Source of the DNA: Candidatus Limnocylindrales bacterium
GTDB lineage: Bacteria > Patescibacteriota > Microgenomatia > Levybacterales > UBA12049
NCBI GenBank assembly: GCA_035526025.1
Contig: DATLDE010000011.1
Span: 49,374-113,373, forward strand
Reading direction: 5' to 3'
DNA: 64,000 bases
Shown: piece after piece, positions 6,184 to 27,263 of the stretch
Layout: every line of letters starts with the position of its first letter
Numbering within the stretch: the stretch's first letter is position 1
Translations under genes and position numbers: made by a program
Notes under the pieces: generated by a model
Databases searched by the model: none
What the model was told of the DNA's origin: nothing
Seen by the model: the letters and a program-made list of their open reading frames with translations, nothing else

Positions 6184-6286
6184 AATTATTTTTGAGGAAA
6201 AGAATTAAACTAATTAGTTCTTGTGAGGGTCGCAAAGCGCAAAACACAATCTCTTCTTACATTTCTATTTATTATACCAGATCTAG

Positions 6287-6369
6287 TGCGGACGAAAGGA
6301 GTTGAACCTTCACACCCTTTCGGGCACTACCACCTCAAGGTAGCGTGTATACCATTTCACCACGTCCGC
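6287..6369 (-). tRNA. tRNA-Leu (anticodon GAG)
   Basis: Reverse complement is GCGGACGTGGTGAAATGGTATACACGCTACCTTGAGGTGGTAGTGCCCGAAAGGGTGTGAAGGTTCAACTCCTTTCGTCCGCA. The long variable arm is typical of Leu. No encoded CCA. Confidence 0.8.
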
Positions 6370-6559
6370 GTATTTTTGTGCCCCTGAGGGACTTTCTTTT
6401 GAACACTTCTTGCCTTGGATTCAGAAAATAATAAATGTTTATCAAAACCTTGAAGATGCTCAAGACGGTCAGCTTATACCTCAGGACATTACAACCTCTA
6501 AAGCATATTATACGAAAAAATTGAATTAAAAGAAAGTTAAATGATTAATAGAGAATTGG

Positions 6560-6832
6560 TTACTTTCCGTAGACTTCATCATGTGTTCCAATATCGACAA
6601 AGTATGCTGTACTATCATCAAGTAAATGATAAATCATTCTTATATTCATTGTAATTGAGATACTCCACATGTTTGTTAAGTTCCCAGTTAATTTATGGAG
6701 TCGCAATGAAGGATGCCTCGGATTAGTTTTTAATAGCTGTAATTGTTTAATGATTTTCTTTTCTAGTTTTTGATCTGTTTTTTTAATTCTTGATAATTCT
6801 TTTACGACAAGCGGAGAGAGTTTAAAATTCAT
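6560..6832 (-). CDS. type II toxin, RelE/ParE superfamily
   Basis: 90 aa. HPSLRLHKLTGNLTNMWSISIT...YFVDIGTHDEVY fits the RelE/YafQ-like core. Start overlaps the upstream antitoxin stop (ATGA). Confidence 0.65.
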   Translation of the reverse strand: MNFKLSPLVVKELSRIKKTDQKLEKKIIKQLQLLKTNPRHPSLRLHKLTGNLTNMWSISITMNIRMIYHLLDDSTAYFVDIGTHDEVYGK

Positions 6833-7086
6833 TACAATTCTTCAAAAAACTTAGTGACATCGTTAACTGAAACTGCATTATTAATCTGCTCCATTGCTTC
6901 CTTGGCTCTTTTTTCAGTCCTTTCAGACATTTTAAATGTAGGATATTCTTCAGTCTCTACCTCTTTGATTATGAGATGTTTTACAAATTGAGTTACAGGA
7001 ATACCTAAGCGCGAAGCTTTAGACTGCAATAAATCATTCAGTTGGTCCGAAAGGCTAATTTTGAGTTGTATTTGTTGTGTATTCAT
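6832..7086 (-). CDS. cognate antitoxin (RHH/ParD-DinJ-like)
   Basis: 84-aa acidic protein immediately upstream of, and overlapping, the toxin. PVTQFVKHLII is ribbon-helix-helix-like. Confidence 0.5.
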   Translation of the reverse strand: MNTQQIQLKISLSDQLNDLLQSKASRLGIPVTQFVKHLIIKEVETEEYPTFKMSERTEKRAKEAMEQINNAVSVNDVTKFFEEL

Positions 7087-7227
7087 AAAATTACTTAATT
7101 AATACCTAAATTATACCTATAAACTGTAGCTATGTCAAGATATAAAAAAATAAAGTGTTCAACTCTCCTTTAGGTGGTCATAAAAAATAGGCTAAAAATA
7201 CAAAAACTATTAAGTTATAAAATCGCC

Positions 7228-7255
7228 ATTTAGCCCGATATATCAATCTATTCGT
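7228..7255. repeat. 27-bp direct repeat, copy 1 (ATTTAGCCCGATATATCAATCTATTCGT)
   Basis: Matches 8581..8607 in 26 of 27 positions. The two copies bracket the Fic gene. Confidence 0.7.
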
Positions 7256-7391
7256 ATGTTTGAGACCGACCATGTCTCCTCTGGTGCACAAGAGAACTCT
7301 TATTTTGAACTCTTGCTGACATATTGTAACAAGTTGATGGAGGCTTATCAAGATAAAGCTGAAGACAAAATTGATAAAAATGAATAATTCC

Positions 7392-8426
7392 TTATTTCTC
7401 ACTCAAAACATAATAAGTGGCTCTTCCTTGTCCTTTTTTCTGAATAAGTCCTGCATCGATAAGTTTTTGAAAATCTAAAACTCTCGTGGGCTTGGCTCTT
7501 GACACTAGCTTTGCATATTCTCGATGGGTAATTGAACCATTTTCTTTTATAAAATTGAGTATTTTAATATGATAATCTTCTAATCTCGTGACTGATTTAA
7601 TAAAGGTTTCTGGCAGTAATTTTTGAACCCGGAGAAGCTCATCAATAATTCCTTCTGTAAAATACTCAAGCCATCTGGTGAAATCCATTTTCTCAGCTAA
7701 ATCATAATAATTTCCAAATTCTCCAACTGTTTGAAAGTATTTTGTAACATTTTTGTTATAATAATTTTCAAAACTAAAGAGACTGAATGTATTTAAACCC
7801 ATTTTTGCTAACAACACTTTTGTCATGAGTCGAGTTGTTCTTCCATTGCCATCCATAAATGGATGTATAATCACCATTTGTTTATGAAAAATACCAGCTA
7901 AAATAAGTGGATCAATACCTATGTTGTTAACATTGACATACCTTGTAAGCTCTTGAAGCATAGGTATTACATCTTGTACATCAGGAGGTAAATAAACCAT
8001 TTTGCCGGTTCGTGGATCATTAACAACTACCGGCTTTTGTCTAAGACCAATTTCGAACTTAGGAAGTAATCCTTCCATGACTTGTTTTTGAATTTTTAAG
8101 ATGAGGTCAAGTGAAAATTCCACTTTTCCCTCAGAAAGTTGTTGATTTAATTCTTGAAGCGCTCGGTTATAATTAAGTACTTCTTTTTCGCTGTCTCTAA
8201 TATGAGAAGGTGTGGTCTTAAGAATTTTTTTAACTTCGGTAAGAGGTAGTGGATTGCCCTCAATACTTGTGGAAGAGTAAGCTGATACTTCGCGGGCCGT
8301 CTTTTCAAATTCAAGAAGTATAATATTTGGGAAATGTCTGTTATTTAGCTCCGCCACAAGAGAAGTGATTTGCTTAATATTGGCGAGTAAACGTTCTGTA
8401 ATAGTGTACCTAGGATTAAATGACAT
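7392..8426 (-). CDS. Fic/DOC family protein (AMPylator-type) with C-terminal winged HTH
   Basis: HPFMDGNGRTTRLMTKVLL matches the Fic motif HPFx(D/E)GNGR. An N-terminal TSIEGN inhibitory-helix motif (S/T)xxxE(G/N) is present. 344 aa. Confidence 0.8.
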   Translation of the reverse strand: MSFNPRYTITERLLANIKQITSLVAELNNRHFPNIILLEFEKTAREVSAYSSTSIEGNPLPLTEVKKILKTTPSHIRDSEKEVLNYNRALQELNQQLSEGKVEFSLDLILKIQKQVMEGLLPKFEIGLRQKPVVVNDPRTGKMVYLPPDVQDVIPMLQELTRYVNVNNIGIDPLILAGIFHKQMVIIHPFMDGNGRTTRLMTKVLLAKMGLNTFSLFSFENYYNKNVTKYFQTVGEFGNYYDLAEKMDFTRWLEYFTEGIIDELLRVQKLLPETFIKSVTRLEDYHIKILNFIKENGSITHREYAKLVSRAKPTRVLDFQKLIDAGLIQKKGQGRATYYVLSEK

Positions 8427-8580
8427 TAGACGTATTATAGACGATTACTAGACGATTGTCAAGTATGTCTCACAATATTTGATTTAAATTAAAGAATACG
8501 AAGAGAAGAGTTGAACTTTTTTGAAGCTAAATTTATAGATTTGCTTACCACAAATAACTGTATGTTCTTATCAAGACAAA

Positions 8581-8607
8581 ATTAGCCCGATATATCAAGC
8601 TATTCGT
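8581..8607. repeat. 27-bp direct repeat, copy 2 (ATTAGCCCGATATATCAAGCTATTCGT)
   Basis: Second copy lies about 30 bp from the 3' end of tRNA-Leu(CAG). Confidence 0.7.
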
Positions 8608-8636
8608 CGCTTTGACAATACTACTATCTTCTCATG

Positions 8637-8719
8637 TGCCCAGGAGAGGAGTTGAACCTCCACGCCCTTGCGAGCACTGGCACCTGAAGCCAGCGTGTAT
8701 ACCATTTCACCACCTGGGC
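8637..8719 (-). tRNA. tRNA-Leu (anticodon CAG)
   Basis: Reverse complement is GCCCAGGTGGTGAAATGGTATACACGCTGGCTTCAGGTGCCAGTGCTCGCAAGGGCGTGGAGGTTCAACTCCTCTCCTGGGCA. Long variable arm. Confidence 0.8.
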
Positions 8720-10105: not shown

Positions 10106-11827
10106 CTATAATAATATTGTCTTTTCGTGGTTCCAGTCAAAATGCGTAGCATTTTGATAGAGGAGCAACCGACGAAAAGCCGCAATCCGAATGCAATGAG
10201 GATAAAGGCTGCAGTCGAGTTGTGACGAGCGGACGTGGTGAAATGGTAGACACGCAAGTTTTAGGAACTTGTGCTCAAAAGGCTTGGAGGTTCGAGTCCT
10301 CTCGTCCGCACACAACAGTACAGTCTCATCCTTAAACCCTCGAATAGCCTGATATAACGGGCTAATCTTATGATTCAATGTACCATTATAGCTCCAAGCT
10401 AATCCTTCAGGGAACATTGAACCAAGCAGTACCTTAGCCTGACTTTGATTTGATCTTTTGTAAGCTTCCCCAAGATCTGCTAAGAGTGTCTTTATAAAAG
10501 ACGTAACTTTATCAATATTGTAATTCTCCATCGTTGCGTCATCTTTACTGATCAAAACTTGAGTAATTTGGTTTTCAATAGTTGCGTTTTGCTCCTTAAA
10601 GATTTCATCAGAATATACACCTGAAAGGTTTTTCTCAACTAACTGTTTTCTAAGAGCTTTAAGCCTCACTATCTCATCATCAGCATTATTTTTAATCTTA
10701 AGTAGCCTTGAATATCTTGCATGGTATGTCTTGTAAAGACAGGTTATGAAAAGATTAAGGCATTCTGTTTTGGGAGTAACTTCTTTGAGTAAATTTATCA
10801 GGACATTATCAAGATCATTTGTTTTAATTGATTTACTATTGCAGGGTTTACCACAGCGGTAATATTGATATTTAATGTGTCGCCCCTTACTCCATGCACC
10901 AGTTAAGCCAAATCCGCATTTTGAACACTTTATAATCCGTCTTAGCGGAAAATCAGGGTTAATGTGATTCCTTTTGGCTAAAGCCACTTTATTTGGGTTC
11001 CGACCGTCCAGAATGGCCTGTACCTTATAGAATTGCTCCTCTGTGATCATTGGTACATATTGTCCTTTTACTTCCTCATTGTATGTGTTTGAGGACAGAA
11101 TTCCCATATAAAACTTATTTCTAAAAAGTTCATTTACTCTCTGGCGAAGCAGGGGATACTCTTTTTGTTTACGCATATGCCTCAAGCCCCAGTCATTCAT
11201 AATTTCAGCCATCTCAGAAAGGCTCTTAGTGCCTGTCGCCATAAGATCCCATGCTTTTCTCATACTATCCCAAGCTTTTGGATCTTTTACCGCATAACCT
11301 GTCTGAACCATATAACCAAGAGGCACAGAGCCTGTAACGATCATTCCTGACAAAAACCGTGCTCTAAGCCCATTTCGTGACCTTTCTGAGCGGATATCAT
11401 TATCAAGTTGTGCAAAGCCAGCAAGAATTGTCTCAACCAGCTTTTCTGTTGGACTTTCTCCAGTTGGCTCGGAAATTGAAACAACATTTGCTCCGTATTC
11501 AGCAAGTTTTTTCCTTATACTTAAATAATCAGCAGTTATTCTTGAAATCCTATCTATTCTATAGACAAATACAGCTTGAACCCTATTCTTGTTTTTCCGG
11601 CAATACTCAAGTAGATTAATCAGAACAGGTCTTCCGGTTATGTTTTTAGCAGAACGCCCCTCTTCTCTAAATATTTCAATCACGTCATAGCCTCTTTTCT
11701 CCGCTTCTTTTCTGCACATACCCTCTTGGGTATCCAGGGAGAAGTTATCAACCTGCTCCTCAGTTGATACCCGAATGTAGATTACTGCTCTTTTCCCATC
11801 AGCATAAATTGCTTTTTGCGGTCTCAT
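10106..11827 (-). CDS. large serine recombinase (resolvase/invertase N-domain + recombinase domain + zinc ribbon)
   Basis: N-terminus AVIYIRVSTEEQ carries the catalytic Ser. Zinc ribbon: CSKCGFGLTGAWSKGRHIKYQYYRCGKPC. 573 aa. The last roughly 70 codons run antisense through tRNA-Leu(TAG) and beyond. The true C-terminus is uncertain. Confidence 0.8.
   Translation of the reverse strand: MRPQKAIYADGKRAVIYIRVSTEEQVDNFSLDTQEGMCRKEAEKRGYDVIEIFREEGRSAKNITGRPVLINLLEYCRKNKNRVQAVFVYRIDRISRITADYLSIRKKLAEYGANVVSISEPTGESPTEKLVETILAGFAQLDNDIRSERSRNGLRARFLSGMIVTGSVPLGYMVQTGYAVKDPKAWDSMRKAWDLMATGTKSLSEMAEIMNDWGLRHMRKQKEYPLLRQRVNELFRNKFYMGILSSNTYNEEVKGQYVPMITEEQFYKVQAILDGRNPNKVALAKRNHINPDFPLRRIIKCSKCGFGLTGAWSKGRHIKYQYYRCGKPCNSKSIKTNDLDNVLINLLKEVTPKTECLNLFITCLYKTYHARYSRLLKIKNNADDEIVRLKALRKQLVEKNLSGVYSDEIFKEQNATIENQITQVLISKDDATMENYNIDKVTSFIKTLLADLGEAYKRSNQSQAKVLLGSMFPEGLAWSYNGTLNHKISPLYQAIRGFKDETVLLCADERTRTSKPFEHKFLKLACLPFHHVRSSQLDCSLYPHCIRIAAFRRLLLYQNATHFDWNHEKTILL
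10229..10310 (+). tRNA. tRNA-Leu (anticodon TAG)
   Basis: GCGGACGTGGTGAAATGGTAGACACGCAAGTTTTAGGAACTTGTGCTCAAAAGGCTTGGAGGTTCGAGTCCTCTCGTCCGCA. Long variable arm. Confidence 0.8.
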
Positions 11828-12213
11828 AGGCCTCCTTTCTCATGAAGCAACTCATTTAAAGTTTTTCCTTCAAATATTTCTCGCTCAAAATCATCAAGCC
11901 AACTTTCAGCTAGGAATTGGACTTTTGTTACCGTATCTTTTAACTCATTTTCGCTAAATTGAGTAGCCATAGGACCTAACGCCTTTTTTGCCTCTTGAAT
12001 AATTTTTCCGTCATATTCTTGCTCCGGGAATAAATCATCCAAGGATTGTTTAAGTGATTGAGAAATTGGCTTGGGCGCAGAGACAGGTAGGGATTCATCT
12101 AAAACTTGTGCTAAAGGAGTAATTATCTTTTCTTGAGAAAGTGGCAACTGTTGAACTGCTGCATTCATATTTGGTCTATCAACATTGTCAATTTTCAAAG
12201 CTAAACTAGTCAT
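11824..12213 (-). CDS. hypothetical acidic protein, overlaps the recombinase start (ATGA)
   Basis: 129-aa ORF translationally coupled to the recombinase. Confidence 0.45.
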   Translation of the reverse strand: MTSLALKIDNVDRPNMNAAVQQLPLSQEKIITPLAQVLDESLPVSAPKPISQSLKQSLDDLFPEQEYDGKIIQEAKKALGPMATQFSENELKDTVTKVQFLAESWLDDFEREIFEGKTLNELLHEKGGL

Positions 12214-12454
12214 ATATGATTAGTATATAACTATATATGCCTAGTTGTCAATCGCCAAATTATTTGCTCTTATTAAGAGCTTTTAAGTGCTTTTACAATG
12301 CTTCTTTTAGGGGTCTTACCCCTCTAATGCAAGGGTAAAATGCACTCCTCATTCTTCGTCGCCCTTGCATTATTCACCCTGCTTATGACTTTCAGTCAGG
12401 TAGTCGGGCATGGGCATGCCCGACAAAAACAATTATGAGAAAGGAGGTGAGAAT

Positions 12455-12790
12455 ATGGAATTATTAACAGTAGAGCTTAAAGAGAAACTTCCAGCTCTTT
12501 ATGCTCAAGAGAAAGAGAGAGATCCATTGGTGTATATTAAATTCTTTGATCCAACCGGATCATGGACATGGTATGCAACTGAAGGTGAGGAGGCAGATGA
12601 TGACTTTCTTTTCTTTGGGTATGTTGTAGGACACGATTCAGAGCTTGGGTATTTTACTCTTAGCCAGCTGAGGAGTGCTAAAAAAGGCGTGAGCGGTATT
12701 TTGAGCTTACCAATAGAACGTGATCTATATTTCAAGCCATGCAGGCTTTCTGAGGTAAAAGGATTAAATCAGTCCATGTGTAAGTTTTAG
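12455..12790 (+). CDS. DUF2958 family protein (plasmid/ICE-associated)
   Basis: KFFDPTGSWTWYATEGEE...FGYVVGHDSELGYFTLSQL...ERDLYF matches my memory of the DUF2958 signature. Start taken at the ATG preceded by GAAAGGAGGTGAG. Track ORF is 12410..12790. Confidence 0.6.
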   Translation: MELLTVELKEKLPALYAQEKERDPLVYIKFFDPTGSWTWYATEGEEADDDFLFFGYVVGHDSELGYFTLSQLRSAKKGVSGILSLPIERDLYFKPCRLSEVKGLNQSMCKF

Positions 12791-12837
12791 TGATAGTGGG
12801 GTGCTGACAAAGTGCCCCACTATTCTAATATGCTAGA

Positions 12838-13629
12838 TTATTTTATACTTTCCCAAATACTTCCAGTTACGCCATTTGCTATTACATCCTCAGCTGTTGC
12901 GAACATGATTGATAACTCATCAGTGTTATCTTCCTCAAGTATTCTTTTAGTATAGCGTTTTGCATAAATCATCCTTTCCTTTGTTCCTCCGACAAAAAAT
13001 ATCATGGGAAAAGGTGAATTTATGTGGTTTTCCCACTCATTACTGTAGTAAAAATCTTTGTATGCGCGTATTCGTTTTCGTATTCTGTAATATGGAAGTT
13101 TCTCATCAAAAATAGTCAGTAGGAAGTATTGTATTTTTTTGCCCTTTTCTTTTTTAGAAAAACATATATCAACCGACAGATCAGAGTTTTTTAAAAATTT
13201 AAAGTCACTATCTTCATTACAGATATCGCTTTCGGTTGAATATGTGCGAGTTACGGTATCATTGTTTTTCCTCTCAAGCTCGCAGCAAATTCTAGAGATA
13301 AGTAAACAGTGTTGAATAAAGCTATCAGAGCGGGTCTTATCCCAGTAGAGTTTATGAATAAAATTTGTGTCATATTTTCCTTTTGCTTTTATATATCTTA
13401 TCCCGTTATTATCCAATGTATAGATTGCCGATATTCTGTTTTTCCCAATGATCGTATTGTCATATATTCTTTTGATGTATTTCTTCTCTGTTAGGTCTTT
13501 TAACCAGTTATTTATTCTTGCCTCGTCTTTGTGATTGAGGAGGGATTGGATATGTTGTCTGTTGAGGAATCTGTATCGTGGAATTAGTGTTGTTATTTCT
13601 TGTTGTTTGTTAGTTATGTTAGGTATCAT
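12838..13629 (-). CDS. replication-relaxation (Replic_Relax) family-like protein
   Basis: 263 aa. N-terminal wHTH-like region (LIPRYRFLNRQHIQSLL...WLKDLTEKKYIKRIY). Family call is tentative. Confidence 0.4.
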   Translation of the reverse strand: MIPNITNKQQEITTLIPRYRFLNRQHIQSLLNHKDEARINNWLKDLTEKKYIKRIYDNTIIGKNRISAIYTLDNNGIRYIKAKGKYDTNFIHKLYWDKTRSDSFIQHCLLISRICCELERKNNDTVTRTYSTESDICNEDSDFKFLKNSDLSVDICFSKKEKGKKIQYFLLTIFDEKLPYYRIRKRIRAYKDFYYSNEWENHINSPFPMIFFVGGTKERMIYAKRYTKRILEEDNTDELSIMFATAEDVIANGVTGSIWESIK

Positions 13630-13788
13630 TATGTTTGTTTTTTTTGTATATATTTATTTTTTACTTTTATTATTTATGCCATGCCCAACCGTATTAATAT
13701 ACTCCGTTATTTTTAAGGGTAGGTGTCACAATTCTATTGCATATTAGCTTCAAATTAGCTTAAAAATTGTCGTTAACATCAACGACAA

Positions 13789-16548
13789 TTAAATATATTG
13801 TTGTTTTATAGTTTTTATTCCTTTTTTAACCCCGTTTGTTTTTACTGTGAGCTTACTTGCTTCTAGCAATTGCTTATCTTTTTTTTCAGAGTCTGTTTTC
13901 TTTGTGTTTCCTTTTGTAGGTACTGCTTTGAACAATTTTTCCAGTTGCTTTTCAACATCTGCTTTTGGAGTCGCATAGTGTGCCCTTGAATTCTCAATAA
14001 TCTTTTTTGCTGTTTTGTCACTCCCTTGTTCTGTTACGGGTAACGTAACGCCTGAAAATGCATCTTCTGAATGCTCATTGGTCACTTTCATATAGAAGTG
14101 GTGTGGCGCAAGATTAACTATTGCCCCTTTTTCTACTTCCGGCTCAAGGAAGGGTAGAAGGATTTTTTCATCATCAGGTCCGTTTTTAAGAGCAATTAAG
14201 TTTCCACTATTACTTAAAACTATCTTTGATAATTTTGGATCTTCAATTTGGGCAATATTTTGATGAGACGGCGTGAAGTAAACATGATACTTTCTTGCTT
14301 CTGAAAAAAGATCAGTAAAATGCGCACTTGCAAAGTTTTGAAATTCATCGATATAAACATAGAAATGAGATCTATCTTTTTCCGGTATTGCGGCTCTGGC
14401 ATATACAGCCAGTTGGATAAGGGAAAGTATTAGCGTGCCAAAGAACGCACTCCGCTCTTCTCCAAGCTTCCCTTTTGAGAGATTTACCAGAAGAATTTTA
14501 CCCTTATCCATTATTGCTGAAATGTTAATTGTTGTATTTTTCTGAAGTAAGATATTTCTTGACAATTTATCTGTCATAAATTCACCCAGTTTGTTGGTCA
14601 AGGGGGAGGCAGCATCTGCCTGCTGAATTTTGCCATATGAGCTATACTCTTTTTCCCAGAATTGCTTTAATACAGGATCAGTAAGAGTTTGAGTAACAGT
14701 TCTTCTATAGTCCTTATCAGTTAACAGTTTTTGAATTGCCATTAAAGAAATGTATGGAGTCTCAGGAGTCGGAGTATGTACCTGGAGTGCAGTAAGCGTG
14801 GCATTTCTGAGGATATGCTCCATTTTCTGACCCCAATGCTTCTCTGGTGTTATTTTCATAAATACAGCCATTAATGACCTGGCAATGAAACCATGCTCCT
14901 CATCAATATCTGAGAATTTTATATCTGGGGAGAGTATATTAAGTCCCAATGGAAAATCTTTATCAGAAGGATTAATTAGGACTACATCTTTCAATCTGTG
15001 TTTGGGGATAAGAGTCAGTAAATGCTCAATCAAATCCCCATGAGGATCAAGAATTGCAATCCCTTTCCCATTTTGAATGTCTTGTAGTGCCATACCTTCA
15101 ATAATGGTTGTTTTACCCATACCTGTTTTACCGACAATGTACGTGTGCTCCTTTTTATTCTTATCAGTTAACCCTACTTCAGTTTTTTCTCCACCATAAT
15201 TATTTGTACCAACTACAACGTCAAACTGCGTTGCTGTTTTTTTAAATGAATGAGGAGCAGGTAGTTCCTTACTTTTGCTTTTAACCATATCCTCAGTTTT
15301 GGTTGTTTGAGTGTAAGGCAAGTGATAGATGCTTGAGAGTTCTGTAACTGATAAGAAAATTGTATGGGAAAAAGAAAGGAGCCTGTTACCAAGTTGGTAG
15401 ACAGAAAAGAGTAAAATATATTGTTTTATTCTTTTAGGAATGAATGATGAAAAAACTGTGTGACGCGGAATAATTGCCTGATACTGGGCATTATCAAATG
15501 TTGAAAGTGTTGCCTGGAACCCCCTTATCCTCTCCCTAACAATATTCGAGTTATTTCCAATAACAAGAAGTCGCATGCTTGTTTCAAACACAGGAAGTTG
15601 TAACTTATCCTGTACCTGCTGAAACAATACTTGTTGAGTAGCTGTTGGGGTAAAGACTTTCTTGGGCTTTGCCTCATAATTATTACGTGGAGCTGGTTGG
15701 TTACTGCTACTTCTCAGTGCAATATCAGCAAAAAAACCAATAATTCCAACTAATAACCCAAGAGTCCAATAAATTAATTTACTAATTACATTAATTGGAA
15801 AAACAATGACTGAAAGCAATCTATTCTTTTGAATAATTGGTGAAATATCCTTATTGTGCCAGAGGTGATTTAGTAGCTTATCTGCCTCCTGTGTTTTTGC
15901 CCTATTACTTGCCTTGTCCATAGGAGAAAGGATTAATTGCAGGGAAATAAGCTCCTGTGGTGCAAGCTTTGTCATATTGCCTGTTAGGTATGCAATTGGA
16001 TCATGCTCTCTTAGTTTTGTTTGATCTGTTAGAGGGATAGCGAAGTGGTTTACTAAACGGAATGTTATTAACCGTATAGCTTTACTTGCTGTGAGAAAAT
16101 TTCTTATGCCTTCAAATGATCGCGGAAGATAATCAGCTACCTCCTCTATCTCAACACTTGGTAAGTATGAAAGAAGTGTTTTTCGTATAACTGGGGCATC
16201 AGATTTAGCTGTGTGAATAAGATAACGGATTCCTTCTTCTTTGGTTGCAACAAGCTCAACACTGATTGTTGTTTTGTCATGTATAAATCTTTGCCAGAAT
16301 GTTTTTCCTTTGATTAGCGAATGGAGTTGGGTAAATAACTGCTCTGTAGCATAGGAACTCTGGAGTGTTTGCTTGATTGGTTTAATTGAAAGAACAACAT
16401 GTGGGGTATTGAGTTTCCTTTTTAGCAGTAAATACCTGGAGAGGAGATAAACTATGAGCAAAGTAAATGCTACGCATGAGAGTAATATTAAGTACGCTGG
16501 AAGAACTGCCAGAAATGATATATATTGTGTTGGCATATGCAATATCAA
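13789..16548 (-). CDS. conjugative-transfer-type P-loop ATPase (TraG/TraD/VirD4 coupling-protein-like, or VirB4-like), membrane anchored
   Basis: N-terminal TM helices. Walker A YIVGKTGMGKTTIIEG near residue 480, followed by IAILDPHGDL. Walker B YVYIDEFQNF. Lys-rich C-terminal tail. Confidence 0.6.
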   Translation of the reverse strand: MILHMPTQYISFLAVLPAYLILLSCVAFTLLIVYLLSRYLLLKRKLNTPHVVLSIKPIKQTLQSSYATEQLFTQLHSLIKGKTFWQRFIHDKTTISVELVATKEEGIRYLIHTAKSDAPVIRKTLLSYLPSVEIEEVADYLPRSFEGIRNFLTASKAIRLITFRLVNHFAIPLTDQTKLREHDPIAYLTGNMTKLAPQELISLQLILSPMDKASNRAKTQEADKLLNHLWHNKDISPIIQKNRLLSVIVFPINVISKLIYWTLGLLVGIIGFFADIALRSSSNQPAPRNNYEAKPKKVFTPTATQQVLFQQVQDKLQLPVFETSMRLLVIGNNSNIVRERIRGFQATLSTFDNAQYQAIIPRHTVFSSFIPKRIKQYILLFSVYQLGNRLLSFSHTIFLSVTELSSIYHLPYTQTTKTEDMVKSKSKELPAPHSFKKTATQFDVVVGTNNYGGEKTEVGLTDKNKKEHTYIVGKTGMGKTTIIEGMALQDIQNGKGIAILDPHGDLIEHLLTLIPKHRLKDVVLINPSDKDFPLGLNILSPDIKFSDIDEEHGFIARSLMAVFMKITPEKHWGQKMEHILRNATLTALQVHTPTPETPYISLMAIQKLLTDKDYRRTVTQTLTDPVLKQFWEKEYSSYGKIQQADAASPLTNKLGEFMTDKLSRNILLQKNTTINISAIMDKGKILLVNLSKGKLGEERSAFFGTLILSLIQLAVYARAAIPEKDRSHFYVYIDEFQNFASAHFTDLFSEARKYHVYFTPSHQNIAQIEDPKLSKIVLSNSGNLIALKNGPDDEKILLPFLEPEVEKGAIVNLAPHHFYMKVTNEHSEDAFSGVTLPVTEQGSDKTAKKIIENSRAHYATPKADVEKQLEKLFKAVPTKGNTKKTDSEKKDKQLLEASKLTVKTNGVKKGIKTIKQQYI

Positions 16549-16719
16549 TAATTTTGAGGCAGTAGTCTAAAGCGGACAGAGGTTTTAGATGAAGCTGATG
16601 ATATCAGAAAAGGTTATTTAAGTACAGATGTCATACAATACCCAATAACCTGCTAAGAGACTTTTTTAATACTTGAAGTTTTAGAGCATGATGGGAAAAA
16701 AGACCAAAGCATCTTGGTT

Positions 16720-17655
16720 TTAAGCAGCAATCTTGTCATAGTAAAATAACTTTCCTCTTACGTCGTCAAAGCAGCGTTTCGAAGTTAGAGCTGATGGTAT
16801 ACCATTTGCATGCCCAGCTTGTTGATAAGCTTGCCATTCTTCAGGATCAAATCTGTCAACATATTCACTGGCATCTCTAGCAATAAAATAAACTGGTATC
16901 CCCGCAGCTAAAGCTGTAGTTCCTTTTAAAAATTCACGCCTATCCTTTAATGGTTCTTCTTTCTTGTTTATATAAGACACTGCAGCAATTTCAGCTGCTG
17001 CAGCTGCTGCTACGTATGGAGCTGTAGCTAAAGTTAATTTTTTCATACCGTATAATGCGGTTACAGCATTTCTAGTGTTTTCACCTCGTCTCCCACCTTG
17101 CACTACGTGATATAGCTCATGAAAAACTACTCCATTTAGTGCAGAATTCCAATGCGGAAGAATGTCTGGGGCTATTTCTAAAACTATTGGATCTTCAGGA
17201 TACATAGGGTGACGTACTGTGCCTGAAAATCCGCTATGTCCATCTCCGTTACCCCTATCTTCTTTACGCATTTGATTTATTTCTAGTCCGTATTTTTTAA
17301 CGTATGCAGATACTCTGTCTACCTCAGAGACTCCTCCGTCAAGATAGGATAAGTAAGTTAGGGCACGAGACATAGTATCCAAATTGACTGCGGGTTGGCT
17401 TGGACTTCCATCTGATCCTCCACCTATTACTATAACAGTGTCAAACTTTCCAGCTTTCATGTATTTTTTTATTTCCTCTGCCTTGGGCTTTAGAAGTTCA
17501 GCAGTTTGTGGAGATATATCATAATCAGGACCAAATGTTCGGTTTTCATAGGCTTTACTTCCCAGGACCCCCCCCAATACAGTAGCAACTCCCGCTTTTG
17601 CACCTAAACGTAAGAATCTTCTTCTGCCTATGCTTACAGGATCTCTTTCCGCCAT
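16720..17655 (-). CDS. Tat-signal secreted protein with HExxH zinc-peptidase-like motif
   Basis: N-terminal RRRFLRLGAKAGVATVLGG. FHELYHV is an HExxH motif. A second internal Tat-like motif, DRREFLKGTTALAAGIP, is also present. Confidence 0.45.
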   Translation of the reverse strand: MAERDPVSIGRRRFLRLGAKAGVATVLGGVLGSKAYENRTFGPDYDISPQTAELLKPKAEEIKKYMKAGKFDTVIVIGGGSDGSPSQPAVNLDTMSRALTYLSYLDGGVSEVDRVSAYVKKYGLEINQMRKEDRGNGDGHSGFSGTVRHPMYPEDPIVLEIAPDILPHWNSALNGVVFHELYHVVQGGRRGENTRNAVTALYGMKKLTLATAPYVAAAAAAEIAAVSYINKKEEPLKDRREFLKGTTALAAGIPVYFIARDASEYVDRFDPEEWQAYQQAGHANGIPSALTSKRCFDDVRGKLFYYDKIAA

Positions 17656-17870
17656 AATGCGGATTATATACCGTTCTAGGATAAATTTCTACACTATTTT
17701 GAGCAGGTTAATTCCCCACTAGAGAAAAAATATATCTAAGTCCATTTCTACAAAACTTAAAAATTTTTACATTAAACACTGTCATATTCAAAAATACATG
17801 AAAAAGTAAATAATTTTATTTTCCTATAGTACTTGTTTTTGCCATTTCAGGCTGCTAAAATAGGCAAATC

Positions 17871-18767
17871 ATGATGCAAGCCGAAAGAAGACCGAGCCGA
17901 TATGAGTTTGGTGATCTAAATAGAAGTCTTTTAAAGGATCTTCGCATTGTCCATTTGCCAGAAACCACCAGCACAATGGATTTAGTTGATGGATTAGCCA
18001 GATCATGGGCAAAAACAAAACGCGAATTCATACCCCCAGTTGTAATAATTGCGGATCATCAAACTGCAGGAATCGGCAGAGGAGATTTGGGAGAAGAAAA
18101 AAAGTGGCATGACATACCCGAGCTATCTATGCTTTTTAGCATTTTTATTCCAAAAGACAGAATAGAAGAAGAAAATCTACCCGAGTTATCAGATTTGGTT
18201 GCATTAAGAACATGCATGGCACTTAGAAAAGCAGGAGGAAATTTTCTTATAAAAGCCCCCAATGACATTGTTGACGCAGATACTGGTAAAAAGGTTAGCG
18301 GACTTCTTGTTAGATCGATTTATTCAGATGAAGGAGAATATTTGGGAGCAAATGTTGGAGTAGGTACAAATGTTCATTATAGAGATAATCAATTAGCTAA
18401 TTTTCCTGTGGAACCTGAATATGGAGCAATCTCAGTAGATAGCGCAACTGGTCAATTCAATAGTAGACAAGATTTATTGGTTGATATCTTAACTGGTATT
18501 TCCACAGTTGTTCCGGAAGCCGCCACTATCAATAAGGGAAGTGTTCATAACCCAACATCTGTTCATGCTATACAAAATGCCGAATGGAGAAGGCATTCAT
18601 ATTTACTAAATGAAAGGGTAGTAGTTAGAGAAGGTGAACAAGTCGTAGCCGAGGGAACAGTTGTTGACACAGAAATTGGTAACGGATTTATATTGAGATC
18701 AAATGATGGAATTGAGCATGCGGTACCGGTTTTTGGAACAGATACGAAGGTGAGGTTAGCTTCATGA
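17871..18767 (+). CDS. biotin--protein ligase (BirA-like; BPL catalytic domain + BPL_C-like C-terminus), paralog 1
   Basis: TSTMDLV...VVIIADHQTAGIGRGDLGEEKKWHD is a divergent BirA GRGRxGRxW block. The C-terminus VVVREGEQVVAEGTVVDTEIGNGFILRSNDGIEHAVPVFGTD is SH3-like as in BirA. Confidence 0.6.
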   Translation: MMQAERRPSRYEFGDLNRSLLKDLRIVHLPETTSTMDLVDGLARSWAKTKREFIPPVVIIADHQTAGIGRGDLGEEKKWHDIPELSMLFSIFIPKDRIEEENLPELSDLVALRTCMALRKAGGNFLIKAPNDIVDADTGKKVSGLLVRSIYSDEGEYLGANVGVGTNVHYRDNQLANFPVEPEYGAISVDSATGQFNSRQDLLVDILTGISTVVPEAATINKGSVHNPTSVHAIQNAEWRRHSYLLNERVVVREGEQVVAEGTVVDTEIGNGFILRSNDGIEHAVPVFGTDTKVRLAS

Positions 18768-19186
18768 TTGGTGAAGGATTTAGGAGATTACCCAGACCCG
18801 AAGGAGATGGCCATCCAACTAGAGAAGTACGGGGAAATGTTACTAGAAGTATCGAGCGTTTAAGGCCAGATTCCATAGCAGTTGAGTTAGTGCCACCTCA
18901 TGAGCTTATGCCATTTATTCTTCCTCCAAGTGCCGAAGGGGTAGTGCAAGCAATAGCGGCATTCGCAATCAGTGGAGAAACCCGTACTGCAGTTTGCGAA
19001 TTTGAAGATCGCAGAAACGATACGGTAACAAGAATTACTCTTGAAAATCCAACTGGTGATCCTTTCAACATGAGAATTACCCTTTCCAGTCCAGACAGAG
19101 AAGAAGGAGAAAAAGTACCACCCGGTATTGGCATTAAGGTTGTTGATAAAGAAGGAGCAACTCAAAAAGAGTTAGATAAAAAGTAA
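18764..19186 (+). CDS. hypothetical protein
   Basis: 140-aa ORF overlapping the ligase stop. No recognisable motif. Confidence 0.35.
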   Translation: MIGEGFRRLPRPEGDGHPTREVRGNVTRSIERLRPDSIAVELVPPHELMPFILPPSAEGVVQAIAAFAISGETRTAVCEFEDRRNDTVTRITLENPTGDPFNMRITLSSPDREEGEKVPPGIGIKVVDKEGATQKELDKK

Positions 19187-19263
19187 GACTTTGGAGACGG
19201 CTGAATCCTCGAGAAGATCCTCTTATTCAAGTTGGACAGACAGTTGAGCCTGGAGCTACTCTT

Positions 19264-19446
19264 ATGCTTGCAACAAGAGGCAAAAGTATCAAAAGAAGAA
19301 TAAAACTTCCAAGAGATAAATTTCCCAAGGGAGGTAAAGTTACTGCTATTTACGTTGACCCAGAGGACAACAATGAAGAACTCCGAAAAAAGGGTAAATT
19401 AGTTAATGGTGAATTTGTTCTTGCAGTTATAGATCCAGTTAAATAG
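19264..19446 (+). CDS. small ORF of uncertain status (possible fragment)
   Basis: 60-aa ORF. The frame is open about 78 nt upstream of the ATG without another start codon. KGGKVTAIYVD is KOW/hybrid-barrel-like. Confidence 0.25.
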   Translation: MLATRGKSIKRRIKLPRDKFPKGGKVTAIYVDPEDNNEELRKKGKLVNGEFVLAVIDPVK

Positions 19447-19449
19447 CCT

Positions 19450-22400
19450 ATGCCTGTATCCGTTAAAGAAAGATCAAGAACTCCAGAAGAAGGTGTCCGT
19501 CCGATTCGTAAAATGTTTATTGCAAACCGCGGTGAAATTGCTGTGCGTGCTGCAAAGGCATGTGAGAGAAGAGGGATTGCTGCTGTAATCCCATATTCTG
19601 ATCTTGAGTCCGAAAGAAATTCTTACGCAACTCGTTTTGTGGATAAGAACGCTAACAAAGGCTGGGAATTAGCAGCTATAGAGGGATATAGTGGCGACGA
19701 AACGTATGGAGATCCTAACGCAATACTACAAGAAGCAATTATACATAATTGTGACGCTATTTTTCTTGGATATGGATTTTTAGCAGAAAACGCTGATTTT
19801 GTTAAGCAAGTTGAGGATCATAATGAGGCAAGAAGAAGCCGAGGGGATGAACCTATTCGTTTACTTGCTCCTGATTCACGTGCCATGAGGCTTTTGGGAA
19901 ATAAAGCAAATGCTCGGGAGTTTGTAAACACTGTTAAAGTTGGCCTTGGAAGAAACAGAAGAACAGTGCCCATTGTTGAAGGATCTGATAAGCCTCGAAC
20001 CCAAATTGAAGAACTAATAAGGGATGTTGAGGGGGACGGAAAGAGCAAAGAAGGTATTGGATATCCTGTTATGGTAAAAGCTCCTGATGGAGGTGGTGGA
20101 ATGGGTAATATTGTAGCACGTACTCATGCTGAGCTTGATGCAGCATATAGGGATCTTCGCGGAACAGGAGAAGATCAAGGATTAATTGTTGAGCACTATA
20201 TAGAAAACGCAATTCATGTTGAGATGCAAGTTATTGCTGATCAACACGGTAACGTTGTGATTTTGGGTGAGCGTGATTGCACTCTTCAGAGAAGAAGTCA
20301 AAAACTGGTTGAAGAGTCCCCATCTCCACATATAAATGAACGGCAAAGGAAGAAAATAACTGAAGAATCTGCTGCAATTGTAAAAAAAGCAAAATATTCA
20401 GGACCGGTAACAATTGAAATGATCTTTGATAAAGACAGAGTTGATGAAGACGGGGATATGTGGCATGGTTTCATGGAAGCAAATACACGCTTGCAGGTAG
20501 AGCATGTTGTAACTGAAATTCAGACAGGAATAGATATTGTTGACACAATGATAGATGTTGCAGAAGGTCGTGAGTTAAAATTTAAACAAAAAGACATTAA
20601 GCCTCAAGGACATACTATGGAGCTTCGTGTTTACGCAGAAGATCCTGACCGTAATTTTGAACAACAAGAAGGAATTTTAAATGTATTAAGTCTTCCTGAA
20701 GATGTGGAGGGAGTAAGGATTGATAAAGGATATGAAGAAGGTGATGAAGTATCAGTAGAATACGACGGAACGATATTTAAAATAAATATACATGGCGTAA
20801 CAAGAGCTGACATGCTTGAGCGGACAAGTCAAGTAATTGCAATGTGTGAAATTGCTGGAGTTAAAAATAATCTTGCCTTTCTTGATGAGCTTATTAATAC
20901 ACCAGAATTTCAACGAGGAACAGTGAAAACGAAATTTGTCGAGGAATGGGTAGACCGTAGGCGAAAAGAGGCAAGAGACCAAATAATGAATGAGTTATTG
21001 GGCGAAAATGGAACATTTACTCCATTTCCCCCATCAAAACTTCGTGATAATTTTCCTGTAAATCCAACTTTTAAAACTTCTAACTCTGCTGAATCCACAA
21101 CGCTAGAGGAAAGCCTTGCGCGACAGAAAGAAAAAACAGGATTAGAAAGAGCGTCAGAATATGGAATTGTTGAAAGAGATGGAGTTAGGTACGTATTATA
21201 TCTATTAAATTCCAAATTTAATGCAGGAACATTTGGAAAAGAAGAAGGGTGGATGTTGACCGATGCAATTAAACTTGCACATAAGTACAATCTCCCATTA
21301 ATAACAGATACTTCAACAGCGGGTGTCAGAAACACTGAAGGATCATACGGAATAGATATGATGATGAACTCTACCAGCGATCTAAGTGAATATCCTCCAC
21401 TTTTTCATATTGACATACGGCATGGATACGTATTGGGTGGAGTTCCAGCCTCATATTCTGGAAGAGCCAATTTGTTTATGGCGGTTAATGATGACGCTAC
21501 CAAAATAGGAATAACTGGAGCAAATGCATTGGCTGCTGGAGAGGATTTGCATCCTACTGACTTAGAAGGTAAGTCAAGCACAAAAGCTGCTGACGCATAT
21601 AGAGCATTGAATGAAAACCAAGAAGACGAAGGCGCTCCAGTGCATACTCCCACCCGTCATCACGAGGAAAGAACTGGTGCTGATATGCTGCCAGCAAGTT
21701 TAACAGAAGCTGGGGCAAAGATTAGCCATATATTACAAATTCTAAAATTCACTCATCCCCACATCAGATCAGATCTAGATACACATGTCTTTAGTCCACA
21801 TGAGCAAATAGGATACGGACATATGCCTCACGCTGTTACTCTTTACGATTCAGGTGAACAACGACCCGGTTTTGTGCCCCCAACAATCAGCCGATTATGG
21901 GAAAGGTTTGCGAGTAATAGAGGAAAAGAAAAAATTATTTTTGCACCTGAAACTCCAGAAATCACAATCGGAGAGAGAAGAAGAATAGTAAAGCACCCCG
22001 ATAGACCTACAGGTCTTGACCTTGTTGATACTGGTTCCGAACTTTTTGATGATGCTGTATTTCTTGATCATGTAACTTTTGTCGATAATGTACACCAAGT
22101 TCTTCCCATTACCTCGGCCTTAGTTCGCTTTGGTGATCACCCAATTTTAGTGGTTACTCAAAATCGTCAAGAGAGAATCAATGACGCTGGAGAAAGAGAA
22201 ATATATTACAAACCAATTCGTCCTACTGATTGGGAAGCCACAAAACGTCATCTTCAATGGGCAGAAAATGTAGGTATCACAGTTATGCTAATGGGCGACA
22301 CTTCAGGAGCAGATTCAAGTAGGCAGGCTGAAGACCGGGGACAAGAAATTAAGCTCGCCGAAATATCGCAATTTGTTCAACAGCTAAAAGTGCCAGTAAT

Positions 22401-22875: not shown

Positions 22876-22877
22876 AT

Positions 22878-23726
22878 ATGAAAACAGAAGCTGCAATTAG
22901 TGTTCGACCTTATACCGAATATGATCAGAATAGAGTCAGATCTGCAGTGGGAGCATTGGGATACGATTTTCAATACCGTCAGATCACTGGAACCACCATG
23001 GATGATGCTCTGTCTTCGGAAAGACCTACTGTTTGGGTTGCTGATAGTCAAAGAAATGGCCGAGGAAGAACAGGAAATAGATGGGAAGACACATCAAAAG
23101 CAAATGTTCTGGTAACAGTTGCCGTCGACCGGATAAAACTTTCAAATCCTTTACTGCTTCCTCAGCTTGGTGCATTGGCTGCCTGCAGGGCTGCCAGAAC
23201 AGTTACAAAAAGTGATGCTCCTCAGATACGTTGGCCCTATGACCTAGAAATTGATGGTAAAAAGTTCGGGGGAGTATTGGTCGAACAAAAGGTTTCTGCA
23301 ACCGGAAAACCGTTAACCTTAATTGGCGTTGGAATGGATGTACATGATCAGTCTTTTCCTCAATTTCCTTGGGAAGCAGTAGCTCTTGAACAAGTACAAG
23401 GCATTGAATCAATAGATAGGAACGCACTATTAATTGAATTTACAAAAGAGTTAACTAGCCTGCTAGATATAATCGATATTGTTGATACTGATCCGCAAGC
23501 ATACGCAACATGGAACAACATTTGGATAGCTCATCAAAGCTTAGGAGGAAAACATGTTATAGCAGAGAATATCGGTCCAGATAAATTTGGGGACGTGGAG
23601 GGAATTGCAAGGGTACCTATGCTAGGAAGAGGGCTTGATTTAGTCACAACAGGTTTCGATGGATTGGAAAAAACTGTTACGGTTTCAAGCTGGAATCCCC
23701 TCTCTTTAATTAGAAACTTGGAATAA
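22878..23726 (+). CDS. biotin--protein ligase (BirA-like), paralog 2
   Basis: QRNGRGRTGNRWEDTSKANVLVTVAV matches the BirA signature GRGRxGRxW..G.xL. It has a C-terminal SH3-like domain. Its start lies 3 nt after the BC-CT stop. Confidence 0.65.
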   Translation: MKTEAAISVRPYTEYDQNRVRSAVGALGYDFQYRQITGTTMDDALSSERPTVWVADSQRNGRGRTGNRWEDTSKANVLVTVAVDRIKLSNPLLLPQLGALAACRAARTVTKSDAPQIRWPYDLEIDGKKFGGVLVEQKVSATGKPLTLIGVGMDVHDQSFPQFPWEAVALEQVQGIESIDRNALLIEFTKELTSLLDIIDIVDTDPQAYATWNNIWIAHQSLGGKHVIAENIGPDKFGDVEGIARVPMLGRGLDLVTTGFDGLEKTVTVSSWNPLSLIRNLE

Positions 23727-23730
23727 AAAT

Positions 23731-24360: not shown

Positions 24361-24418
24361 TATGGCAATAAATTTACATTTGCAGTAATAATTAAGACTA
24401 TGTTATAATGCAAATCTT

Positions 24419-24781: not shown

Positions 24782-24834
24782 GCCTACCGCGCGGTTATTT
24801 GAAGTCTTAGGGTTTGACATTTTATATTAAAAAT

Positions 24835-25548: not shown

Positions 25549-25623
25549 ATTATGCCTATAATTAGTTTCTTACTGCGACCTTTTTATAAAAAGTGTATAA
25601 TCTAAAATAGAGGTAAATTATTT

Positions 25624-25827: not shown

Positions 25828-25830
25828 TAT

Positions 25831-26148: not shown

Positions 26149-26186
26149 CTTCTATTTTCACACTATTATTCGGGCCCGAACGTAAG

Positions 26187-27212: not shown

Positions 27213-27263
27213 TCATAAAGTATAAAGCATCACTTCATGCTTTGTCAAGTGGACAAGTTAAAA

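Follow-up and report, generated by a model that had tools for sequence, protein, structure and literature searches.

This study concerns a 64,000-nt stretch of contig DATLDE010000011.1 (positions 49,374 to 113,373 of the forward strand) in the Candidatus Limnocylindrales bacterium assembly GCA_035526025.1, hereafter called the window, and in particular the 2266 nt that separate two of its three clustered tRNA-Leu genes, tRNA-Leu(GAG) and tRNA-Leu(CAG). We conclude that these 2266 nt very probably consist of two tandem recombinase-less units, designated E1 and E2, which belong to a family of elements built around a large serine recombinase (LSR), and that the two direct repeats bracketing the Fic gene of E2 are the relic 3′ ends of recombinase genes from two lineages. 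An original prediction, made from the letters of the sequence, had instead read these repeats as the mark of a small Fic cassette inserted by site-specific recombination with att duplication, or of a duplication at a tRNA-adjacent hotspot. The observations underlying this prediction proved accurate. The two near-identical repeats lie where they had been reported and have the sequence that was described, Fic is the sole sizeable gene between them, the second repeat (placed about 30 bp from the tRNA 3′ end) lies 28 nt from it, and the 74-aa open reading frame (ORF) at 7178..7402 falls on relic sequence and indeed lacks support as a gene. The interpretation held in part: DNA inserted by site-specific recombination is present at a tRNA gene and absent from relatives, but the repeats are not an att duplication and the boundaries of the insertion differ.

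The direct repeats and the ends of serine recombinase genes

The two repeats read ATTTAGCCCGATATATCAATCTATTCGT at 7228-7255 (copy 1) and ATTAGCCCGATATATCAAGCTATTCGT at 8581-8607 (copy 2). Aligned without gaps, 7230-7255 and 8582-8607 are identical at 25 of 26 positions, and copy 1 carries one extra T after AT. A search of the window for the 26-mer, allowing up to three mismatches, returned three sites, compared with 0.00 expected from 100 dinucleotide-preserving shuffles. The original prediction had suggested searching for further copies, and the additional one, missed in that first reading, lies on the minus strand at 10340-10365 with three mismatches. A generic dispersed repeat was ruled out, since there are only three copies in 64 kb and each lies at the 3′ flank of a tRNA-Leu gene. 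Copy 3 lies 28 nt beyond the 3′ end of tRNA-Leu(TAG) and has the same spacing and orientation to this tRNA as copy 2 has to tRNA-Leu(CAG). It is located inside the ORF of an LSR (Table 1), where it reads ISPLYQAIR in frame. Copy 2 reads ISPIYQAIR, and copy 1 represents the same coding stretch in a frameshifted form. The differences between copies 2 and 3 are coding-like, occurring at third positions or giving I/L, I/V, F/L and N/D replacements, and the likeness of the two copies extends across the 28-nt spacer into the tRNA (KISPIYQAIRRFDNTTIFSCAQERS followed by a stop codon versus KISPLYQAIRGFKDETVLLCADERT). Collectively, these data revealed that the 26-mer is the conserved last coding stretch, ISP(I/L)YQ(A/S)IR, of LSR genes. 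Apart from the three tRNAs, no sequence in the region matched an Rfam family, and neither tblastn nor a nucleotide profile detected any other recombinase pseudogene remains upstream of the 26-mer within the 6.3-8.7 kb interval.

The LSR family itself is very large, with at least 1080 homologues in the database at 53-92% identity, typically 511 aa long; the few source names among them are mostly those of candidate-phyla-radiation (CPR) bacteria (e.g., Levybacteria). The catalytic-serine context RVSTEEQ is invariant in all 12 aligned members. Each of the 14 LSRs that we inspected carries ...LNxxISP(L/I)YQxI... and then, about nine residues later, (S/C/G)A(D/E/G)E(R/G)(T/S), or else reads through the tRNA in antisense; this terminal motif is the antisense reading of the tRNA acceptor and T arm. 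We sampled 84 LSR loci (80 metagenomic loci plus a few others). In 63 of them, the LSR 3′ end adjoins a tRNA gene of convergent orientation or overlaps with it, and most of the others are contigs that stop there. The tRNAs found at LSR ends are those for Leu (with four anticodons), Gly, Glu, His, Met, Ser, Lys, Phe, Val, Ala and Arg, and the distance from the motif to the tRNA end is 26-30 nt throughout. The usual LSR stop is a TGA within ...ACTTGAACC..., which is the T-loop read backwards. The T-loop of tRNA-Leu(TAG) in the window is TTCGAGT, and therefore the resident LSR ORF lacks the usual TGA and runs to 573 aa. This ORF passes in antisense through the whole of tRNA-Leu(TAG), 62 aa beyond the 511-aa norm, and is likely over-extended by gene callers. 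Scanning of genome contigs with a single LSR protein yielded at least two loci, both at tRNA-Gly(TCC), and scanning of viral contigs with the motif yielded one further LSR, at tRNA-Phe. In the locus L068, a second motif copy was seen on the opposite strand (9645-9667), 5 kb from the LSR and near the contig end, where it could belong to another LSR or to a relic. Elements of the family are bounded by a common GCAC, formed on one side by the tRNA acceptor end, the discriminator and the next C, and faced on the other side by a tRNA-like distal arm. All 16 tabulated junctions end in GCAC, and the sequence common to the two sides amounts to 4-9 nt. The LSR family thus appears to target tRNA 3′ ends in CPR bacteria, and our literature searches returned no description of tRNA-targeting serine recombinases in these organisms.

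Both repeats of the original prediction were recovered by a nucleotide profile of length 200 built from 59 LSR 3′ ends. With nhmmer, the relic containing copy 1 (relic 1) aligned to profile positions 147-198 (E 3.9e-9) and the relic containing copy 2 (relic 2) to positions 143-197 (E 8e-10). With tblastn, relic 1 gave FSPIYQSIRMFETDHVSSGAQENS, while relic 2 matched LSR residues 487-517 with 58% identity (E 1.6e-6). Identities were then computed over the 55-56 nt from the motif to the tRNA side. Copy 1 is 0.80-0.82 identical to the LSR ends of L057 and L062, whose proteins are only ~55% identical to the resident LSR, and 0.66 identical to the resident LSR; copy 2 reaches 0.79 with its best match and 0.68 with the resident LSR. 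Between copies 1 and 2, the identity is 0.75, nearly all of it inside the motif; of the adjacent 28 nt, only about half agree. Since each copy is closer to foreign LSR ends and their mutual identity is limited to the motif, copies 1 and 2 are not copies of each other. As judged from these alignments, their likeness most probably reflects common descent from a strongly conserved coding stretch in different recombinase lineages.

Two recombinase-less units between the tRNA-Leu genes

The junctions of the inserted DNA lie at GCAC cores, each separated from its repeat by 28 nt in the direction of the tRNA, and thus the Fic unit spans 7284-8635 and not 7228-8607. Read from tRNA-Leu(CAG), the locus consists, head to tail, of E2, E1, 8 nt of host sequence and tRNA-Leu(GAG) (Table 1). 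Each unit keeps both end arms of the family, namely, the tRNA-proximal spacer with the LSR relic and a distal arm ending in GCAC. In the tRNA sense, E1 comprises the spacer, relic 1, a promoter, the antitoxin, the ParE toxin, the distal arm and the GCAC core, and E2 comprises the spacer, relic 2, about 110 nt, the Fic promoter, Fic, the distal arm and the GCAC core. No integrase or transfer genes are present in either unit; E2 encodes only Fic and E1 only ParE and its antitoxin, and the other ORFs are short and overlap the relics.

Table 1. Features of the window discussed in the text, with the unit boundaries proposed here
Feature	Position	Strand	Basis and remarks
tRNA-Leu(GAG)	6286..6369	-	ARAGORN; Rfam tRNA 54.5 bits; host gene just beyond the E1 distal end
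E1, probable 906-nt recombinase-less mini-element	6378..7283	-	Junction comparison, distal-arm homology and phase
E1 distal arm (P arm)	6378..6527	+	Starts with GTGC and pseudo T-loop (GTGCCCCTGAGGGACTTTCTTTTGAAC)
E1 toxin, ParE/YafQ-type	6560-6832	-	Pfam ParE_toxin E 6e-8, YafQ E 1e-7
E1 antitoxin	6832-7086	-	Weak CcdA match
E1 promoter TTGACA-17-TATAAT	7110-7138		12/12 consensus positions
LSR relic 1	7229..7283	+	Motif 7230-7255, 28-nt spacer 7256-7283; last ~18 codons, frameshifted by one extra T
E2, probable 1352-nt recombinase-less Fic mini-element	7284..8635	-	Junction comparison
E2 distal arm (P arm)	7284..7387	+	GTGCACAAGAGAACTCTTATTTTGAAC...TTGATGGAGGCTTATCAAG; recombinase phase reads AQENSYFELLLTYCNKLMEAYQDKAEDKIDKNE and a stop codon
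Fic protein, 344 aa	7392..8426	-	Pfam Fic E 1.6e-16, HTH_24
Fic promoter TTGACA-17-TATAAT	8434..8462	-	12/12 consensus; overlaps three (A)ATCGTCTA / ACGTCTA repeats
LSR relic 2	8577..8635	+	Motif 8582-8607, 28-nt spacer 8608-8635; reads KISPIYQAIRRFDNTTIFSCAQERS and a stop codon, into the tRNA
tRNA-Leu(CAG)	8636..8719	-	ARAGORN, Rfam; target gene, 3′ terminal GCAC is the junction core
LSR	10106..11827	-	Pfam Resolvase E 8e-32, Recombinase E 2e-8, Zn_ribbon_recom E 2e-7
tRNA-Leu(TAG)	10229..10311	+	ARAGORN, Rfam; target of the intact element
Intact integrated element, ~17.9 kb	10312..28238	-	Pfam; delimited against L001
Cargo of the intact element			LSR, DUF2958, Replic_Relax, TrwB/TraG-like ATPase, biotin carboxylase fusion, two biotin ligase-like genes
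Distal cargo of the intact element: Fic-MerR	26187-27212		
Distal cargo of the intact element: RelB/YafQ	27387-28124		
Distal arm of the intact element	28138-28238		

The E2 distal arm is homologous to the distal ends of intact elements, including those of L016 (34 nt, 91%), of L004 and of the element resident in the window (28138-28238), and its core-proximal ~29 nt (GAGTTCAAAATAAGAGTTCTCTTGTGCAC) are identical to L084. The E1 distal arm, which lies 8 nt from the 5′ end of tRNA-Leu(GAG), is a more diverged version; in the recombinase phase, it has an ORF of 49 uninterrupted codons (APEGLSFEHFLPWIQKIINVYQNLED...), whose peptide conforms to the pattern of the other distal arms, and the other frames are closed. 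The 3′ flank of tRNA-Leu(GAG) itself is empty in the window, and in the relative L001 its 3′ end holds an LSR element.

The Fic translation contains the motif HPFMDGNGRTTR (HxFx(D/E)GNGRxxR type), an N-terminal STSIEGN of the S/TxxxEG type and a C-terminal winged helix-turn-helix. Its promoter is nearly invariant in all six aligned Fic loci, which differ elsewhere. The ATCGTCTA/ACGTCTA repeats at 8434-8466 may constitute an operator for the helix-turn-helix of Fic itself. The Fic ATG lies 7 nt past the −10 hexamer, so that the mRNA is nearly leaderless. Between relic 2 and the Fic promoter (8497-8520), we also noted a decayed tRNA-Leu T arm plus acceptor 3′ strand (AGTTCAACTCTTCTCTTCG in the tRNA sense), which is kept in L084 and L085 and may be the trace of an older junction.

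Comparison with relatives revealed which DNA had been gained. In L001, whose LSR is 92% identical to the resident one, the same three tRNA-Leu genes occur in the same order, with an element at tRNA-Leu(GAG) and an empty tRNA-Leu(TAG), and the interval between tRNA-Leu(GAG) and tRNA-Leu(CAG) contains no Fic, no ParE and no motif. The two tRNAs are separated by 38 nt in L017 and by 35 nt in L074, as opposed to 2266 nt in the window, and therefore essentially all of the 2266 nt represent an insertion. The original prediction had proposed to look for relatives without the Fic segment but with a single repeat copy; L001, L017 and L074 indeed lack Fic in this interval, and L001 has no motif copy beside tRNA-Leu(CAG). 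The 525-nt spacer between these two tRNAs in L001 harbors a 119-aa gene (11641-12000) of the 23S rRNA intervening-sequence / Avd-like family, without LSR-type arms.

The architecture of E2 is not confined to the window. Fic homologues are abundant (4742 at 72-92% identity), and their names, where given, are those of CPR bacteria. The E2 layout recurs in L084 (Fic 92% identical) and in L085-L088 (Fic 80% identical), where the tRNA-Leu 3′ end is followed by the spacer, a decayed motif, the same ~110 nt, the invariant promoter, Fic, the distal arm and GCAC, and then by unrelated flanks. In L085, the tRNA is tRNA-Leu(GAG) and comes after the g188/g182 gene pair, a position that equals the tRNA-Leu(TAG) site of the window and not the CAG site. 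In the window, the region between tRNA-Leu(CAG) and tRNA-Leu(TAG) (8810-10100) carries two paralogous glucosaminidase-like genes of 188 and 182 aa that are 32% identical, and this arrangement of the pair is kept in L001, L085, L005, L067 and L082. In L089 and L090, Fic is followed by a distal arm of another lineage, similar to L055. The ParE/antitoxin pair recurs in L015, where it is located between tRNA-Gly(TCC) and tRNA-Arg(TCT) and where a remnant of the distal arm is present but an LSR relic is absent. Fic and toxin-antitoxin genes are typical distal cargo of the family, since the intact 18-kb element of the window also ends in Fic-MerR and RelB/YafQ and since the units recur. An exact-protein look-up located an identical Fic, together with the same toxin-antitoxin pair, on a single 2.35-kb contig; the neighboring 188-aa protein was not on record in this look-up. 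The assemblies L084, L087, L088, L089, L090 and SRR8554898 show a contig break 70-370 nt upstream of Fic, at the position of the tRNA and LSR relic; such breaks are consistent with sequences that are multi-copy in the sampled populations.

The distal arms share a further property. In eight arms, among them those of three recombinase-less Fic units (E2 of the window, L084 and L085) and of E1, just one frame, that which continues the LSR (xGT GCx ...), stays open, over 29-49 codons, and stops interrupt the remaining two after 0-18 codons. The encoded peptides are related, e.g., CAEDSIYFEPLFLQFIVHFSSLMEAYQAAEEPEK, AQESSYFELLLSHFSKLLEAYQAEVEEK and AEDRLYFEPLLASFIKFMQAYQAEEE, and show in-frame indels. 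Two database LSRs read into such a tail with no adjoining tRNA called, namely, P0078/L091 (...IGDPSALYIEPALTWFTSLMEFYQNVDISMN and a stop codon) and L055 (...FGEPAGPWVELFFNSLLQMYEKL...), whose 1.9-kb contig ends ~210 nt past the LSR match. The junction of the E1 relic with the E2 arm has the same configuration and forms a 43-aa plus-strand ORF at 7256-7387. We infer from these reading frames that, in an excised or tandem form, the recombinase ORF would cross the core into the distal arm and gain about 30 C-terminal residues, the integrated form being the short one. A circularity check of L091, a contig of the attP form, gave no terminal overlap, and a search with the 40-aa distal-arm peptide that required shared words returned no protein candidates. 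A match of the recombinase C-terminus to the E1 arm peptide (32% over 28 aa, E 58) was taken as chance. In L091, genes for a DDE_3 transposase and for a BrnT/CopG toxin-antitoxin pair lie just past the core (4287-6035), so addiction cargo is again distal.

Taken together, these data suggest the following course of events. The first integration at the GCAC core of tRNA-Leu(CAG) would have been that of E1 or its parent. A second one, of E2 or its parent from another recombinase lineage, would have used the same core and thereby displaced E1 outward. Each unit would have retained one relic recombinase 3′ end at its tRNA-proximal side, and these two relics would be the direct repeats that were originally noticed. 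The units may have arisen by deletion, or they may be non-autonomous elements that a cognate recombinase mobilizes in trans. Because Fic units with the same truncation occur at different tRNA-Leu genes, the recombinase was presumably lost before the spread. This recurrence favors movement as a recombinase-less unit, with descent accompanied by rearrangement also possible. The E2 circle junction is predicted to read …CTCTTGTGCAC joined to ATGAGAAGATAG…, the site lacking E2 to read tRNA-Leu(CAG) …CTGGGCAC joined to CAGAGGAGACATGG…, and the fully empty CAG site to read …CTGGGCAC joined to AAAAATACGCGGACG….

Alternative readings and the role of the 26-mer

Several points weigh against the stacking of two mobile recombinase-less units. 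No excision product and no empty CAG site from the same species was found. The E2 arms resemble those of an L016-like lineage and not those of the resident recombinase, and mobilization in trans is presumed from sequence. The crossover is placed by a common sequence of 4-9 nt, and the decayed tRNA-3′-end-like fragment inside E2 (8497-8520) is left unaccounted for. The extension ORF is open even in recombinase-less units, so that its conservation may be at the level of DNA and not of protein. Finally, random deletion does not explain why independent relics were cut at a common point (profile positions 143-147 of 200).

A role of the 26-mer at the DNA level, e.g., as an extended arm site, would explain this common cut point. 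In such a case, the 26-mer and its spacer would form a cis-acting site, either a long recombinase arm or a tRNA terminator hairpin, and the mini-elements would need an arm of ~55 nt. This possibility would refine the stacking of two units, and we regard it as a serious one about which doubts somewhat prevail. All relics begin 54-57 nt from the tRNA, at profile positions 143-147, though copies 1 and 2 are independent. Synonymous codon usage in the motif is strongly skewed compared with the rest of the gene, with AGC accounting for 94% versus 39% of AGY codons, CCG reaching 56% versus 14%, and ATT 92% versus 50%. Synonymous conservation at LSR codons 460-495 is 3-5 times the gene-wide level, with Ser489 at the top of 258 columns, in a comparison made within one sequence set, where common ancestry acts on all columns alike. 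In the tRNA sense, copy 2 forms an 8-bp hairpin followed by AUUUUGUCUU (z = -2.7); with its U-rich tail, it is the only terminator-like match in the region. However, the hairpin is weakly supported across 57 family members, where 74% of the cells pair, the central pair fails in 39 of the 57 and covariation is marginal, and pairing leaves the AGC preference unexplained. Moreover, known serine-integrase attP sites measure 40-50 bp in total (10.1101/2025.05.02.651858), which would make a 54-nt arm unusual. The toxin-antitoxin unit of L015 is wholly without a relic, and the common cut point is derived from just two independent truncation events.

A bolder proposal, which we consider improbable, is that the last ~130 nt of LSR genes, above all the 26-mer, double as arm-type attachment DNA needed by the mini-elements and that the C-terminus switches its length with integration. 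If this were true, the C-terminal switch would act as a built-in sensor of the integration state, and a separate directionality factor might not be needed to determine in which direction recombination proceeds. Several short sequences are shared between the regions concerned. TTGAAC is present in the same orientation in the LSR 3′ region (codons 483-485, ACA TTG AAC), in the tRNA T-loop read in antisense and in the distal arm, and the usage of AAC at LSR codons 483-485 is 93% versus a background of 36%. GCTTGATA(A/T) is found in both the 26-mer and the distal arm (EAYQA). GGTTYAA and ACTRT blocks occur in both arms of the window and L004 elements, and other lineages fit this half-site symmetry poorly.

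Alternatively, E1 and E2 might be the remains of two full-size elements that decayed where they had inserted, without ever having moved in their small form. The intact 18-kb element carries the same kinds of cargo (Fic and toxin-antitoxin) at its distal end, addiction modules resist loss, and the toxin-antitoxin unit of L015 has a different and shorter left arm, all of which would fit such decay. Nevertheless, we regard it as unlikely, because the Fic units of the window, L084 and L085-88 share an internal truncation and the ~110-nt non-coding stretch at different tRNA-Leu genes and flanks, which argues that the truncation predates the spread of the Fic unit.

The remaining explanations are those from which the original prediction started. 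Two near-identical direct copies do bracket one gene next to a tRNA, and the segment is absent from relatives, yet it is highly improbable that the 26-27-mers are the attL and attR of a single Fic cassette, whether generated by target or att duplication or in an integron-like manner. The same sequence is coding DNA in about 60 intact recombinase genes elsewhere, at a fixed distance from the tRNA, and both arm homology and the comparison of occupied with empty sites place the junctions at GCAC, at a distance of 28 nt. Furthermore, serine recombinases require only a short core (PMC5704250), and the sequences adjoining the two copies stem from different lineages. An integron-like system is also contradicted by the motif, which is coding and not attC-like, and by the absence of any tyrosine or integron integrase among the ORFs scanned from 1.8 to 28.1 kb. 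Hardly credible is a local duplication of the tRNA-Leu(CAG) flank by slippage or unequal crossing-over at a hotspot, with Fic in between by chance, since the tRNA-3′-end-like sequence following copy 1, which might speak for it, is the E2 distal arm (identical to L084 and 91% to L016, not to tRNA-Leu(CAG)), the identity is confined to the motif (25/26, about half in the spacer and 0.75 over 56 nt) in copies that are closer to other LSR ends and have flanks of different lineages, and the whole Fic unit recurs at other tRNAs.

The intact element and comparison with known systems

The third gene of the cluster, tRNA-Leu(TAG), is occupied by an intact element. In L001, where this site is empty, the trigger factor gene starts 12 nt after tRNA-Leu(TAG). 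The trigger factor region of L001 matches the window from 28288, and the trigger factor homologue of the window starts at 28259, which indicates that ~17.9 kb (10312-28238) were inserted. The far end of this element comprises a tRNA-like sequence with a 5-nt insertion (GGTTCAAAATAAATACTATCCTCCGCAC), followed ~60 nt inward by CTTGATAAGCCTCCAT, and an ORF that is in phase with the recombinase, and the same far end is present in the complete small elements L004 (~8 kb) and L016 (~5.5 kb). The core genes at 12410-16548 encode proteins of the DUF2958 and Replic_Relax types and a 919-aa TrwB/TraG/HerA-like ATPase; L001 has this set as well, and it suggests a conjugative or mobilizable lifestyle in a CPR genome. 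The metabolic cargo at 17871-24360 consists of a 1141-aa biotin carboxylase/carboxyltransferase fusion and two biotin/lipoate ligase-like genes. The acceptor stem of the occupied tRNA-Leu(TAG) is GCGGACG/CGTCCGC, identical to that of tRNA-Leu(GAG), whereas the empty tRNA-Leu(TAG) of L001 (13740-13824) has the stem GGGCCGG/TCGGCCC, the remaining tRNA being 98.5% identical. That both strands of the stem differ may point to a conversion linked to element traffic.

The targeting of tRNA 3′ ends is usually credited to tyrosine integrases. Here, elements stack at the 3′ ends of a three-gene tRNA-Leu cluster in which each tRNA is a landing site in some relative, and the locus may serve as a worked example of how small CPR genomes gain and keep Fic and toxin-antitoxin genes. 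The LSR family behind it comprises over 1000 proteins, apparently targets tRNA 3′ ends, and has its gene physically interlocked with the target. If the sites are confirmed, the enzymes would combine the simplicity of serine integrases with conserved, harmless tRNA sites and could help to engineer bacteria that are hard to manipulate. As regards annotation, recombinase ORFs are often called too long, through the tRNA, the short ORFs labeled "hypothetical" at the ends of elements represent arm sequences, and assemblies tend to break at the tRNA/LSR-relic sites.

Among known systems, integron cassettes share with E1 and E2 the organization as a single promoter-plus-gene unit between repeats. They differ in that no IntI-type integrase was found here among the ORFs scanned (1.8-28.1 kb), there is no attI/attC structure, and the units have their own promoters with 12/12 consensus positions. 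In myxophage Mx8 (intP/intX) and in SSV1-type elements, tyrosine recombinases use a tRNA target and an attP located inside the int gene, the reading frame crosses the crossover and the C-termini of the two forms differ. In contrast to these, the integrated form is here the short one, terminated in the T-loop of the tRNA, and a gain of ~30 residues is predicted for the excised form.

Like the integrases of phiC31, Bxb1, A118 and TndX, the LSR has Resolvase, Recombinase and zinc ribbon domains, its gene lies at the element edge by the att site, and there is little identity between the recombining sites. A review describes serine-recombinase elements as inserting into dispensable protein genes, which are thereby disrupted (PMC5704250), whereas the present family targets the extreme 3′ end of a tRNA without destroying it, and the recombinase ORF ends inside the tRNA. 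Islander-type tRNA islands (PMC4383910) resemble the elements described here in that the 3′ part of a tRNA is targeted, the gene stays intact, a tRNA-like fragment marks the far end and several islands may occur per tRNA. Unlike those islands, which employ tyrosine integrases, the present elements rely on a serine recombinase, their far end is an element-borne tRNA mimic with a 5-nt insertion and not a displaced exact copy, and the junction identity is only GCAC plus a few bases.

The closest known kind would be the cis-mobilizable elements (CIMEs) that are built by tandem accretion, a process here presumably driven by tRNA-targeting serine recombinases. CIMEs have lost the genes for integration and transfer, keep both end sites, and are stacked by successive integration (PMC5704250). 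Similarly, E1 and E2 lack integrase and transfer genes, keep both end sites, lie in tandem at the 3′ end of the target and carry addiction-type cargo. However, the CIMEs described so far involve tyrosine integrases and longer direct repeats, whereas the units described here belong to an LSR family with a core of 4-9 nt, and each of them retains ~55 nt of the recombinase gene's own 3′ end.

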